Assembly: GCA_963847445.1 (NCBI GenBank)
Contig: CAWJZV010000017.1
Span: 64,001 to 128,000, forward strand
Direction of reading: 5' to 3'
Origin: an uncultured delta proteobacterium
GTDB taxonomy: Bacteria; Desulfobacterota; Binatia; UBA9968
DNA: 64,000 nucleotides
Below, piece after piece: positions 20,427-33,550 of the stretch; within the stretch, counting starts at the first letter, position 1, and each line of letters begins with the position of its first letter. Under the pieces are notes generated by a model. The model did no database searches and was not told the DNA's origin. It saw only the letters and a list, made by a program, of their open reading frames with translations. The position numbers and the translations under genes were made by a program.

Positions 20427-22296
20427 TCATTTTTTCGATGGCTTCAAAGTTACTTCGTTTGCCAAGCGTCGCGCCTCTTCTTCTCCGAGAGACTCCAGTT
20501 CGTCAAGGATTTTTGCTAGATCGTTTTGATCCAGTTTATTAATTTCGTATTGAGAAATGACGCACGCCATTTCAGCGACTGTTGGTGATTGGAACAAGGA
20601 CCGAAGCGGAATTTCTATCTGAAATTTTGCCATCACCCGGGATACGATTCGTGTAGCCGCCAACGAATCCCCTCCCAAATCAATGAAATTGTCGTGTATG
20701 CCGATCTGATCCAGCTCAAGGACGTCGCGCCAAATTTGCGCCAGATCTTTTTCGAGAGGCGTTTTATGGTTGATGAGCGGCGTAGCCAGTTCCGGCCTCG
20801 ACCGTCCCGGAATAGGAAGCGCTTTGCGGTCAATCTTGCCGTTAGGCGATACTGGCAAAGCTTCTAAGAAGATAAACCTGGTAGGGACCATGTAGTCCGG
20901 CAACTTTTTTCGGACGTACGAGCGAAGTTCCGTTGTGCTAATGGTCGATCTCGGTTTCGGCACGGCATAGGCCACGATCCGGCTGCGGTCGGAATCGGCA
21001 TCGAGGGCGACAACGAACGCATCGTTGATCTCGGGGTGTTGACGGATCGTTTTGGCAATTTCCCCCAGCTCGATGCGGAAACCTCGGACCTTAACCAGAT
21101 CATCCACGCGCCCGACGAATTCGATGCTACCGTCGGGCAGTAGGCGACCTAGATCACCGGTCTTATAAAGGCGCGCCCCTGGGTCCTGACTGAAAGGGTG
21201 AGGAATGAATTTTTCTGCCGTCAGATCTGGACGTTTAAAATATCCGCGGGCCAGTTTTCCTCCCAGATAGATTTCACCGCAGATTCCGTCAGGAACACTC
21301 TCCAGAGATTCGTTAAGCAAGTGCAATTGCACACCGGGCAGGGTCTGCCCCAGCTCCGTAATAGTTCGCGTCTCGAACGGTTCGCATTTGCGGTACGTAG
21401 CGCTCGGAGCCTCTGTCGTGCCGTAGTAGAGACTCAATTCCGCCGACAATTTGGCAAAATAGAGCGATTGCAGATCCGCGGTCAAAGGCTCGCCGAAACA
21501 GACGATGTGTCGCAGGCTATCGCAGCGCTCAAGTCCATTCTGGGATAGCAGGGCTCGAAGGGTGGACGGAGTCAGCGTGATAATACTAATCTGGTGTTTC
21601 GCGATGAGTTGAAGCAGATAGTCCATATCGGTTTCCGTACCGGGCGGAGTGATGATCAGCCGGGCTCCGGTCAAAAGCGGCCAGAAGAGTTCGCGAAGGA
21701 GAAGAGTAAAACTAATCGAACTTTTCAGGATATGACGGTCATTGGGGGTCAGTTGGTAAAGCTTGTGCTCATGGGACGTTCGCAAATCCCGCGGCCGATG
21801 GGGTAGCATTACGGCTTTGGGTTCTCCCGTAGAACCCGAGGTATAGATGAGAAAGCCTAGATTCTCGCTGCTAATTAAATTCTCAACGGGAGCAGCGCTT
21901 TCCGTGAAAACTGTGCTCCAATCTTTGTCCAAGACAATTGACTCTGCGTCCACTTCGGGAAGACATTCCAACAGCCGCTCCTGAGCCAGCAGCACTTTGG
22001 GCCGAGTTTCGTTCACGATAAAGGATAGACGCTCTTTGGGATTCGACGGGTCTAATGGGACATAGACGCCGCCTGCTTTGAGAAGCCCCAGTACCGCAAT
22101 CACCAATTCAAACGAACGCTCCATGCAAACGCCCACTGGCACCTCGGGCGCTACCCCGAGTGAGCGTAGGCGGCGCGCCAAGTTGATTCGCACGGCGATC
22201 GAGTTCGCGGTACGAAAGAGACTGCTCCCCATAAACCACTGCGACGTTATCCGGGGTATCTCTGACCTGAGCTTCAAAAAGTTCGTGCGTAAACAT
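20427..22296 (-). CDS. stand-alone NRPS adenylation-PCP didomain (indel near 22175)
   Basis: [39 protein letters not shown], acidic C-terminal docking helix. Confidence 0.9.
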
Positions 22297-22399
22297 AACT
22301 TAGATTCATCCCGGAATCCGTAGTAAAGAAATCAAATAGGAGTGGTTGATCTCGCTCCATGTTGTCGTTTTTTTGATCTCATTCAAAGACAGGGGCGGG

Positions 22400-23590
22400 T
22401 TATACATAGCCGAATCGTTTTCGGAATCTCCGCACGGACTCTTCAGGCAGTGTATAGCCGCGGCACTGCAGACCAGCCGCCTGATAACCTAATCCCTGGA
22501 GCACTTGGTAATGCGACTTGGAGGAATCGTCATCGACGACGCCGAGGGTCGGCTTCAAACTTTCATAACGCGCCGTCAGCAGTCCCGATAGCACGCAACC
22601 GCCGATGTTAAGCGGGTTATATTTGGATATGGCTTCGAGAACAGCCGGCGGCGTCTGGTCCTGCACCCTTTGAGGTAAATACAGAGTTCGCTGGAAAGGT
22701 TCCGGGAGCCGAAGGACGCCGCCCGCAGTAAAAAGAATATCCTCGTGGGCTTCAAAACGCTGCATAGCCTCATCGGATTGAAGCAATGCGGAGCCGAGTC
22801 GTCGACGATCACGGTTCCTGGTCTGAGCTGTTCGATATCCAGTACATCGGGCACATTGGTGGCTCCAACAATCAGGCCGGCGTCGTAAACTTCGTGCGGC
22901 ACTTTCCCATCGACTCGACGATCTGAATAGAGTCCTGCGAATTTCAATTCACGAATGAGGTCATCGCGAACTTTTTTTAGGTGATCGAGCTTGCTGTAAA
23001 TATCACAAAGCGTAATGGACTTTGGATGGGGCAGGCTGTGAAGCATGAGGCGAAGCGTGGTGTAACCGATGGATCCCAGCCCGAGGAATGCGACATTTTC
23101 TTCGGCCAGGCTTTTGCCCGCTTCGCGCAAAATCCTTTCGATCGTCATTACGACGGTAGACACGGTCGTCGCATGACCGGTGGTGACGAGAGGATAGCGA
23201 TCGTTTGCGGAAATGACGTCCGCGATGGCCTGCCCGTAGTTGGTTGCCGAGGGGAGCAAGCCGGTCAAGGAAACAACGCGTGCTCCGATGCGATGGGATA
23301 TTTCCAAGGCTTCGAGAATCAAGGTGACGAGATCCGATTGATCGTCGTATAGACGGGAGCGCAACCGAGGCAACCCGATATTCGCGATCCGGCCAAGGTG
23401 GGTTTCATTGATGCCGAACACGCAGGGTAGTTCGTCGAACCAGTCATAAAGAGCGGCATCGCGCGACAACCCCATGTGCTGGAGAAGGTCCTCCGACAAA
23501 TAACTCAACGCGGCGGCATCGACGGGAGGGATCTTTCCCGCTGCCAGAAGAGAAAGCAGCGATCGTCGTTCGATCGATAGCGGTCTCGCG
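22400..23590 (-). other. terminal NAD(P)-binding domain, acyl-ACP reductase/COG5322-like
   Basis: [49 protein letters not shown] in the same order as the AAR motifs. Confidence 0.7.
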
Positions 23591-32500: not shown

Positions 32501-33254
32501 GTTGGGCGTCAACTGGTACCGTTCGACCAAGGAGCGAAGGGCACGAGTATCGGTTTTGGAAAGCCGGGCGGTCTTCTCGCCATAACTCTGCACCTGCTGC
32601 GGGATTGGTTGGCGATGATTTCCGGCCAGACTTTGTTCGGCGTTGAGATCTTTCAGTCTCGCGCGCCAGAAATTCTCCGCTTCGCAAATGTTTTGTTTCT
32701 GAAGCCAGTCGATGTACGACCGATAGGGCGAAGGATTGCTTAAACTTAAGTTGTCGCCACGACAAATGGCTTCATAGAACGCGAAGACTTCGTTGAGGAG
32801 CAAGACGCGCGAGCGGCCGTCAAATAGAGCGTGATGAGAAGTCCAAATTAATCGGTATTCAGCTTGAGCGCAGCGAAGCAGCGTCAATCGCATCAGCGGG
32901 GCTTGATCCAGGTGAAACCCAAGCTGCCGGTCGGTTTGCAGAAAGCTTTCGAGTTGTTTTTCCTGTTCATCAAGAGTTCGATCGCTCCAATCCAAATGTT
33001 TCAAGGGAAGTTGGACATCTCGATGCACTTGTTGGACGGGCGGCTCCGTCCCTTCCCAGAAAAAGCTTGTCCGCAGCGCGGCATGGCGGCGCAAGACTTG
33101 ATCCCAGGCTCGCTGAAAAGCGCTGACATTCGAGCTCTTCGCGGAGCACGGCAACGAGCTGCTGAATATAGACACCCGATTGCGGCGCCGACAAGCTATG
33201 GACGAGCATGCCATGTTGTAATGGCGACAGGGGGTATGAGTCTTCAATCTGCAT
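22400..33254 (-). CDS. trimodular NRPS C-A-PCP-C-A-PCP-C-A-PCP + acyl-ACP-reductase-like terminal domain (many indels)
   Basis: Consecutive overlapping ORF fragments: C1 HHALFDG; A1 [13 protein letters not shown]1 LGGHSL; C2 [10 protein letters not shown]2 [13 protein letters not shown]2 LGGHSL; C3 [10 protein letters not shown]3 [13 protein letters not shown]3 LGLHSL; terminal Rossmann domain. A single-gene reading is inferred. Confidence 0.85.
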
Positions 33255-33331
33255 AAGGAAAAACTTTTTGCGCTCGATGTATGTACGTCGTTACCGAACC
33301 AACCTGAATCGCATTGAATCTAGCCGCGCTT

Positions 33332-33550
33332 TTATTCCTCGGAGCTATTTTCTGCCATTTTGTTTCTCAAACTTAGCGGTCTCATGTCGGTCCAAACTTT
33401 CTTGATATAAGCCAAACAATCGGCCTTCAGCGCTTCTTTACCAGCATCTTTCCAACCGAGGGGATTGGGTTTTTCCACTGGCCAGATCGAGTATTGTTCT
33501 TCGTGATTTACCACTACTTTGTAAATCCTATTGTCTTCTGTTTCTTCCAT
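33332..33550 (-). CDS. mbtH: MbtH-like protein
   Basis: [16 protein letters not shown]...[15 protein letters not shown]. Confidence 0.97.

Follow-up and report, generated by a model that had tools for sequence, protein, structure and literature searches.

The stretch of DNA analysed here, referred to as the window, comprises 64,000 nucleotides of contig CAWJZV010000017.1 from an uncultured delta proteobacterium (genome G000). Its minus strand carries, between positions 20427 and 33550, a nonribosomal peptide synthetase (NRPS) cluster which encodes an MbtH-like protein, then three successive condensation (C), adenylation (A) and peptidyl carrier protein (PCP) modules followed by an end domain of about 400 amino acids, assigned here as a putative terminal amidation domain (TAD), and then a stand-alone A-PCP. 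Domains were called with Pfam on the minus-strand open reading frame (ORF) pieces and motifs were read by alignment. The Condensation, AMP-binding and PP-binding triplet was found three times between 33247 and 23711, the ORF at 20427-22277 matched AMP-binding, AMP-binding_C and PP-binding, and the MbtH-like protein scored 75.4 bits against PF03621 (cut-off 27). For an NRPS of such size, with so many domains, a chance origin is impossible. This anatomy is the one proposed in an earlier note made from the sequence, and motif reading returned the same specificity codes for A1 and A2, which we take, from code tables, to be Ile-type and Gly-type, respectively. The A3 code, which that note had left as unknown, could be read and still has no assignment.

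The best relative in the genome collection, G001, has this set of genes, 86-88% identical to the window at the DNA level (L001, L083 and L084, L numbers denoting fetched loci). Its NRPS is nearly unbroken, with proteins of 4328 and 1492 amino acids, and is followed by an A-PCP of 625 amino acids. What the window and G001 have in common is limited to mbtH, NRPS, A-PCP and a leader of about 400 nt, and transposase fragments flank the window copy, so that the cluster is a compact one of three genes. When mbtH and the leader were aligned with G001, the mean column identity was 79% over the whole alignment, and the outer flanks were unrelated.

Table 1. Features of the cluster and its flanks. Positions are those of the window unless a fetched locus is named.
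Feature	Position	Strand	Basis and remarks
MbtH-like protein gene, 72 aa	33332..33550	-	Pfam PF03621, E 2.3e-21, profile 5-52 of 53; kept in G001
Non-coding leader 5' of mbtH, conserved	33551..33940	-	Sole flank common with G001
Main NRPS gene, C-A-PCP-C-A-PCP-C-A-PCP-TAD	22403..33298	-	More than 12 frame pieces; Pfam on pieces
C1, first condensation domain, HHALFDGRS	31910..33136	-	Pfam Condensation, E 8.7e-83; D-donor/acyl-donor-like clade
A1, code DAFFLGVTFK	30395..31860	-	Pfam and motif reading
PCP1	30130..30315	-	Pfam PP-binding, E 7.5e-18
C2, HHIVSDGWS	28718..30054	-	Pfam and motif
A2, code DILQLGMIYK	27197..28664	-	Pfam and motif reading
PCP2	26926..27114	-	Pfam PP-binding, E 1.5e-15
C3, HHIVSDGWS	25519..26865	-	Pfam and motif
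A3, code D-A-R-(S/L)-L-G-Q-M-T-K, no substrate assigned	23990..25461	-	Pfam and motif reading
PCP3	23711..23905	-	Pfam PP-binding, E 1.7e-15
CarI-type putative TAD	22403..23592	-	Motifs TTGH, GLGSIG, LCD, DDSAPHCF
Stand-alone A-PCP, Thr for Asp235, probable loading module	20427..22305	-	Pfam, alignments, tblastn frames; frame break at about 22180-22210
Mutator-family transposase fragment, directly 3' of cluster	19828..20238	-	PF00872, E 4.9e-22, profile only 290-378 of 379
DUF772 transposase fragment, 5' of cluster	35008..35496	-	Pfam; adjoins truncated NMT1 gene at 35530-36069
Further soil-clade TAD loci with C-A(Thr235)-PCP follower	L139 7754-15945; L160 3-6090

The end domain and the stand-alone A-PCP

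The earlier note had described the end domain as reductase-like. No Pfam family matched the 352-amino-acid piece at 22576-23634 (E<=0.001) or residues ~1070-1492 of the G001 ortholog (E<=0.01), and no NAD_binding_4 or other short-chain dehydrogenase/reductase (SDR) profile was found after the last PCP. In the PDB, the window piece 22774-23625 matched 9e4x (E 1.6e-80, 270 residues aligned), and the G001 ortholog matched 9e4s (E 2.1e-120, residues 29-423 of 425) as well as 9e4x (about 1e-120). The end domain is about 50% identical to the solved terminal domain of CarI, and the C-terminal third of the window copy, which lies in another frame, is 84% identical to G001. Both VTTGHATT and DDSAPHCF are present in the window translation; the TTG and the Cys are invariant in 22 homologs and align with the PDB chain, the Cys corresponding to CarI Cys2238. 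The GxGxxG loop (GLGSIG) and the Asp of LCD, which confers NAD over NADP, are also present, again at invariant columns, and NAD binding is predicted. The domain follows PCP3 and is itself followed by a stop, which places it at the C-terminal end of the last NRPS module. The family counts 959 library representatives at E<=0.001 and, among the best 150 matches listed, mostly forms the C-terminal end of long proteins. The end domain is thus, as far as its sequence tells, a CarI-type putative TAD and not an SDR reductase; what stood of the former description is the Rossmann loop, in the absence of an SDR signature.

PDB 9e4s is identical over 413 residues to a Moorena producens 3L sequence (L109), and the solved structures could therefore be tied by sequence to a bioRxiv preprint (10.1101/2024.10.28.620694). 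A full-text search on the PDB codes had returned nothing relevant, and the accessible text of the preprint prints no PDB code. According to that text, the TAD is built of a macrodomain-like lobe and a Rossmann lobe, binds NAD, not NADP, beside the invariant Cys within reach of the PCP arm, resembles in fold the cyanobacterial acyl-ACP reductase (AAR) and is spread widely at NRPS ends; it gave no release activity in any condition tried, and a missing component is suspected. Carmabin, vatiamide E/F and hectoramide B have primary amide ends and the last modules of their synthetases bear a TAD, so that the link between TAD and amide, in the accessible parts of the two sources, is a product correlation in three cyanobacterial pathways (10.1101/2024.10.28.620694; PMC10949194). 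The G001 ortholog also gave a weak NCBIfam match (E 9.4e-7, residues 71-270) to the N-terminal part of PigE, which is presented in the available part of PMC8341465 as a thioester reductase domain similar to AAR and glutamyl-tRNA reductase (GluTR). No AAR chain was returned when the G001 ortholog was searched against the PDB at E<=10. The PigE match fits a wider AAR/GluTR-like superfamily, which makes a reductive outcome possible, though less likely.

The A domain of the stand-alone A-PCP has Thr in the column of the amine-binding Asp235, the mark of an amino-acid-activating A domain; its GGE is replaced by CFGE, and its A5 motif reads YGTTEAPSA. The same features recur in 10 relatives, which are 48-88% identical; Asp235 is retained in two cyanobacterial relatives (43-45% identity). 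Many relatives of the A-PCP of about 620 amino acids were found in soil metagenomes at 70-88% identity. The nearest solved relatives of the domain are ordinary amino-acid NRPS A domains and not aryl or fatty-acid ligases. Since replacement of Asp235 is, in the accessible text of PMC10949194, a known mark of A domains which activate keto acids, the stand-alone A domain probably activates an acid in which the free alpha-amine is missing, the best guess being a 2-oxo or 2-hydroxy acid. A search for related loci that started from the Thr235 alignment keyed on general A-domain features, and its matches were ordinary A domains. Loci were sought instead with a degenerate DNA pattern of YG(A/T)TEAPSA; of the 18 obtained, seven are true relatives (at least 43% identity).

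The first C domain of the window has as best solved matches the first C domain of McyB (379 bits), the C domain of PvdL (325 bits) and that of TycB (237 bits), which accept a D-aminoacyl or fatty-acyl donor that a separate carrier presents. The rhizomide starter C domain scored 46 bits and the CDA starter C domain fell below the cut-off; C1 thus does not belong with the lipo-initiation starters in this bit-score comparison with solved C domains. The best matches of C2 were Txo and TycC-type C domains. First C domains of the C1 type (HHA.LDGRS) are 41-52% identical to C1 versus 27-29% to C2, and they were found together with a Thr235 A module in Gemmatimonadota (L105/L255), in a metagenome-assembled genome of a beta-proteobacterium (L161), in Rokubacteria (L262) and in Verrucomicrobiota (L267). 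In L262 and L267 the assembly lines end in a thioesterase (TE), and no TAD was seen within the fetched ~10 kb on either side. The Thr235 module accompanies the C1-type starter even in these loci, which supports a loading role. When only intact HHxxxD C domains are counted, the main NRPSs of the window, G001, L105/L255 and L262, which could be read over their full length, each have one A-PCP pair more than C domains. The stand-alone A-PCP is therefore most likely, from its sequence and its company, a loading module.

To place the pair of TAD and A-PCP, 80 TAD loci were surveyed, 68 of which have at least 2 kb of downstream sequence. An A-domain match lies downstream in 10 of the 68; six are of the non-Asp235 type, none of these being cyanobacterial, and residue 235 was not read in the other four (L103, L121, L163 and L174). 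The hypothesis that every TAD has an A-PCP as its partner was rejected on these counts. The six modules, which directly follow the TAD gene, have Thr in G001, L105, L139, L160 and L161 and Ala in L169. Two loci found by motif, L256 and L266, also have a non-Asp235 A module immediately behind the TAD gene. In a quick tree of 75 TADs, scored by SH-aLRT and without bootstrap, from which L161 was left out owing to a stop in its match, a clade of eight rows (SH-aLRT 91) contains the ortholog of the window TAD and six loci with a non-Asp235 follower; the other two rows have too little downstream sequence to judge, and L169 is not a member of it. Product-linked cyanobacterial TADs belong to other clades, and none has a non-Asp235 A partner. 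The C domain at the N-terminus of the partner is degenerate in its catalytic His motif in four of five cases (HR, HR, HS and HQ for HH). In L255 (3169-11740) a C-A(Thr235)-PCP-TE comes after the TAD gene, and in L266 (9097-16151) the TAD protein itself reads A-PCP-TE-TAD. This synteny of TAD and Thr235 module may represent one cluster family spread across phyla.

Broken reading frames

The main NRPS gene of the window is broken into pieces: tblastn with the G001 proteins gave colinear high-scoring segment pairs which change frame, and the frame of the A-PCP gene is interrupted once, close to the 5' end. Relative to the G001 ortholog, 24 indels were counted in 8.56 kb (22 of 1 nt and two of 2 nt); none is a multiple of 3 and no deletion exceeds 2 nt. 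Extra bases in the window account for 17 of the 24, and 17 of the 24 are at run length 1, that is at a base outside any run. When the broken region was read in the ortholog frame, its 2788 codons contained no nonsense codon, with 425 synonymous and 389 non-synonymous codon differences. As a control, 49 ordinary conserved G001 ORFs of at least 300 amino acids, all with a good match in G000, were compared with that genome: 12 were split over frames (16 frame switches in 19,644 amino acids, or 0.27 per kb). Eight syntenic non-NRPS regions (21.3 kb) contained 26 indels of 1-2 nt, about 1.22 per kb, of which 19 were extra bases in G000 and 21 were at run length 1. The indel spectrum of the NRPS is that of ordinary genes genome-wide, and other NRPS loci of G000 are likewise fragmented. 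Gap-open counts from blastn were discarded as an error control because compensating gaps at 80-88% identity made them uninformative, and frame-switch and MAFFT indel counts were used.

Contigs from three public runs (X1, X6 and X7, of the 151-nt-read type and from three studies) are about 97-98% identical to the window region. At all 12 of the indel places listed, with 27 further rows outside the list, contigs of X1, X6 and/or X7 are without the window indel, and eight or nine of these 12 are places also found against G001. X1 differs from the window at 352 places in all; for the 36 substitutions listed, which cover the TAD and PCP3 region (22451-23775), 14 were placed on the window branch (8 synonymous, 6 non-synonymous) and 20 on the X1 branch (8 synonymous, 12 non-synonymous). 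The ratio on the window branch is no worse than on the X1 branch, and constraint is therefore not relaxed there. Skips and back-joints of about 3.2 kb, with sides below 32 nt, which appeared in the comparison with read contigs, were taken for cross-matches, among similar modules or with other organisms, and not for variants.

These observations make it very likely that the frames were broken by errors in the consensus of a noisy assembly, and the cluster is probably functional and most likely intact in the organism. Some of the data weigh against this. Frame switches reach 1.25 per kb in the NRPS and small indels 2.8 per kb, which amounts to a 2- to 5-fold local excess of breaks over the controls that is without explanation, and the runs compared derive from other strains (about 2.3% different) and are not the source reads of the assembly. 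The same excess would suit a reading in which the frameshifts were biological and the cluster a real, recently decayed array of pseudogenes in this strain; the transposase fragments on both flanks, the loss of G001 synteny outside the cluster, and the fact that the indels are private to G000 and missing from close strains in other samples would also fit such decay. Yet single extra bases outside homopolymers mark ordinary genes throughout the genome, a quarter of which are broken too, as are the further NRPS loci of G000, and neither nonsense codons, nor deletions above 2 nt, nor a raised non-synonymous rate on the window branch were found, so that we consider decay improbable. A dead cluster, which the earlier note had named as an outcome that would overturn its proposal, is thus not what the error spectrum, the lack of nonsense codons and the contigs from other studies point to. 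Any pseudogene call in G000 requires a control, and in a noisy assembly even a cluster full of frameshifts should not be declared dead when such a control is lacking.

G001 is not free of errors either, as indicated by apparent compensating 1-nt indels in its mbtH gene relative to the window (L083 7560-8030). The G001 NRPS, too, contains one site of overlap or frame break, at L084 12839-12996. Elsewhere in G000 single extra bases were observed for example at C15:64762-70020 and C26:69635-72399. Two G000 segments, C1:15623-35714 and C37:5076-21958, both match the same G001 region with similar identity, which agrees with the 6.9% contamination that has been reported, or else with duplicated strains in the bin.

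Predicted product, alternatives and module variation

Taken together, we favour, with a probability of about 0.5, a likely intact cluster in which the A-PCP acts as loader and the TAD releases X-Ile-Gly-Xaa-NH2. The stand-alone A-PCP would load a carboxylic acid X without a free alpha-amino group, C1 would join X to Ile, and modules 2 and 3 would add Gly and then the unassigned residue Xaa. The chain on PCP3 would then be handed to the invariant Cys in the CarI-type TAD at the C-terminus, which it would leave as a primary amide. Of this scheme, the domain anatomy, the family of the end domain, the unusual A domain and the error spectrum are observed, and the substrates, the part played by the A-PCP and the amide release are deduced. 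Of the acyl-tripeptide expected earlier, three modules (Ile, Gly and unknown) with a non-amino-acid cap are retained; the cap would most likely come through the Thr235 A-PCP and not through a lipo-initiating C starter. The aldehyde or alcohol release proposed along with it is not favoured, the end domain belonging to a family which the sources, as far as available, tie to primary amides.

Several points weigh against this scheme. The code-to-substrate assignments were read off code tables rather than computed, and the substrates of A3 and of the Thr235 domain are unassigned. L267, with two C domains and two A-PCP pairs, breaks the pattern of one extra pair, and a Thr235 module with its own TE, as in L255, L267 and relatives of 860 amino acids, is odd for a pure loader. 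The window TAD sits in a soil clade apart from the cyanobacterial TADs with known products, and the words "terminal amidation" may not describe this clade, because a C-A(Thr235)-PCP-TE follows the TAD gene in L255 and a TE precedes the TAD in L266. Finally, in the preprint text at hand, no TAD has shown in vitro activity and the source of the nitrogen is unknown (10.1101/2024.10.28.620694).

If the end domain used its Cys and NAD(H) in the manner of an acyl-ACP reductase, release would be reductive and would give an aldehyde or alcohol, X-Ile-Gly-Xaa-H. The TAD fold, the position of the catalytic Cys and the nicotinamide site do resemble those of cyanobacterial AAR, and an aldehyde intermediate is considered, in the accessible text of the preprint (10.1101/2024.10.28.620694); the weak PigE match of the G001 ortholog to an AAR/GluTR-like region (PMC8341465, as available) and the place of the window TAD in a clade without known product go in the same direction. 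All three product-linked TADs, however, pair with amides (10.1101/2024.10.28.620694; PMC10949194), and the accessible preprint text reports no substrate release with NAD(H). Moreover, the NAD-specific Asp and the Asp stacked on the nicotinamide, both of which its authors read as favouring NAD+, are conserved here (10.1101/2024.10.28.620694), and AAR itself was not matched in the PDB search. Reductive release therefore appears quite improbable.

A different role for the Thr235 A-PCP, which we regard as rather unlikely, would be that of a TAD partner in chain release, or in redox on a carrier-bound 2-oxo or 2-hydroxy acid, C1 then starting by lipo-initiation from an acyl-CoA or acyl-ACP. It would account for the Thr235 A module right behind the TAD gene in six of six clade loci with enough downstream sequence, for its absence after cyanobacterial TADs, and for the degenerate C domain which precedes it in four of five cases. 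The TE borne by some partners and their fixed place behind the TAD leave room for such a function, as does the missing component suspected in the available preprint text (10.1101/2024.10.28.620694). The role as loader is in better agreement with the Thr235 modules which accompany C1-type first C domains in TE-ended NRPSs with no TAD within ~10 kb (L262 and L267), with the one extra A-PCP pair of the window, G001, L105/L255 and L262 (L267 excepted), and with the weak likeness of C1 to solved lipo-initiation starters. In addition, the clade is perhaps one horizontally spread cluster family, in which case its synteny is not independent evidence. It is conceivable, if quite unlikely, that in the soil clade the TAD and the following Thr235 A-PCP(-TE) form a two-protein system, in which the carrier-bound acid would be a co-substrate or redox partner rather than only a starter. 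Such a system would explain the inertness of isolated TADs in vitro, and the three-gene cluster would then be the simplest system in which to solve the amidation of NRPS products.

The window and G001 differ in module number. Three modules with four A-PCP pairs and three C domains were found in the window, versus five modules with six pairs and five C domains in G001; about 7 kb of G001 (two modules), located between the A1 start and the A3 end, are missing from the window. From code tables, we take the two extra modules to have Asp-like and Thr codes. The core of the window A1 (30900-31445), which bears the specificity pocket, is foreign relative to module 1 of G001: its matches to the orthologous cluster L084 are only 35-65 nt long, and it is 83.5% identical to another G001 NRPS locus (L092 8076-8620). 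By the same tables we take the A1 code to be Val-type in G001 and Ile-type in the window. The comparison (window 30900-31600 and 22379-33267; L084 1741-8803) looks like a natural deletion or insertion of modules together with an exchange of the A core. Since contigs of X1, X6 and X7, from three other studies, cross the junction, the three-module form is real and present in all three.

In G001, a second NRPS lies a few kb upstream (L083 1-3645, G001:C3:120000-123644); it starts with Formyl_trans_N/C, followed by a C fragment, an A domain and a PCP, and is absent from the window flank. An Rfam scan of 17000-37000 found no family in the mbtH leader and a single sub-threshold plant microRNA match in the whole span; a promoter and terminator scan stayed at chance level and gave no promoter signal above chance in the leader. 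The minus-strand ORFs at 18891-19412 and 40096-40860 have near-identical Pfam matches, at about 34 bits each, to a DSP/PTP phosphatase found in polymorphic toxin systems and may belong to a segment duplicated on both sides of the region. An AAA ATPase gene directly followed by a subtilase (S8) gene of 838 amino acids occupies 36314-39883, and a caspase-like C14 peptidase (46386-47267) and a peptidoglycan-binding protein are found farther along the window.

Comparison with known systems

Sequence and literature searches, which were made without antiSMASH, MIBiG and BiG-FAM, gave no characterised cluster that corresponds to the complete gene set. The architecture as a whole is in this respect as unfamiliar as the earlier note had held it to be; its type of end domain, on the other hand, is known from characterised clusters. 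The soil clade or the neighbouring A-PCP may already appear in the supplementary clusters S2-S9 of the preprint. TAD-type end domains are widespread (959 representatives), yet no member has a demonstrated reaction. The cluster may serve as a practical test bed: it is small, has simple predicted substrates (Ile and Gly), many close relatives in soil metagenomes and a natural pair of three- and five-module forms, on which the release of peptides by the TAD, the substrate of the Thr235 A domain and the natural exchange of modules and A-domain cores could be studied.

SDR-type terminal R domains, which have a Ser/Thr-Tyr-Lys triad and yield peptide aldehydes or alcohols, as in MxcG, resemble the window end domain in their position after the last PCP and in their Rossmann nucleotide site. 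In contrast to them, the window domain matches no Pfam reductase family, belongs to another fold family and is expected to use Cys catalysis. The first C domains of McyB, TycB and PvdL, its top solved matches, are comparable to C1, which is N-terminal in its protein; the window cluster differs in having neither an epimerisation domain nor a fatty-acyl ligase, the presumed donor being the Thr235 A-PCP. The stand-alone A domain is close to the keto- and hydroxy-acid A domains of depsipeptide synthetases, in which, in the accessible text of PMC10949194, Asp235 is also replaced within an amino-acid-type A domain. It differs from these by Thr rather than an aliphatic residue, by the lack of an embedded ketoreductase, by standing alone or behind a degenerate C domain, and by the unusual A5 motif YG(A/T)TEAPSA. 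AAR and PigE's N-terminal domain share with the TAD, as described in the parts of the sources available, the two-lobed fold, the transfer of a thioester to Cys and the adjoining nicotinamide cofactor (10.1101/2024.10.28.620694; PMC8341465). Unlike AAR, the window TAD is fused to an NRPS and is predicted to use NAD, not NADPH, with no sequence match between the two in the PDB search; the known products of the TAD family, according to the same preprint text and that of PMC10949194, are amides and not aldehydes.

The window cluster is a further case of a recently described, biochemically unsolved kind of NRPS, the closest counterparts being CarI (carmabin), VatR (vatiamide E/F) and HcaD (hectoramide B), with PDB entries 9e4s, 9e4u, 9e4x, 9e50 and 9e56. 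In these, as in the window, a domain of about 400 amino acids lies directly behind the last PCP and has the TTG, the GxGxxG loop, the NAD-specific Asp, the DDSxP loop and the invariant Cys. The host of the window cluster is a soil or sediment bacterium and not a marine cyanobacterium, and the cluster is a pure NRPS with MbtH, without methyltransferase or polyketide synthase parts. Its TAD has a DDSAP rather than a DDSGP loop and belongs to a separate clade, in which a Thr235 A module follows in all six loci that could be judged.

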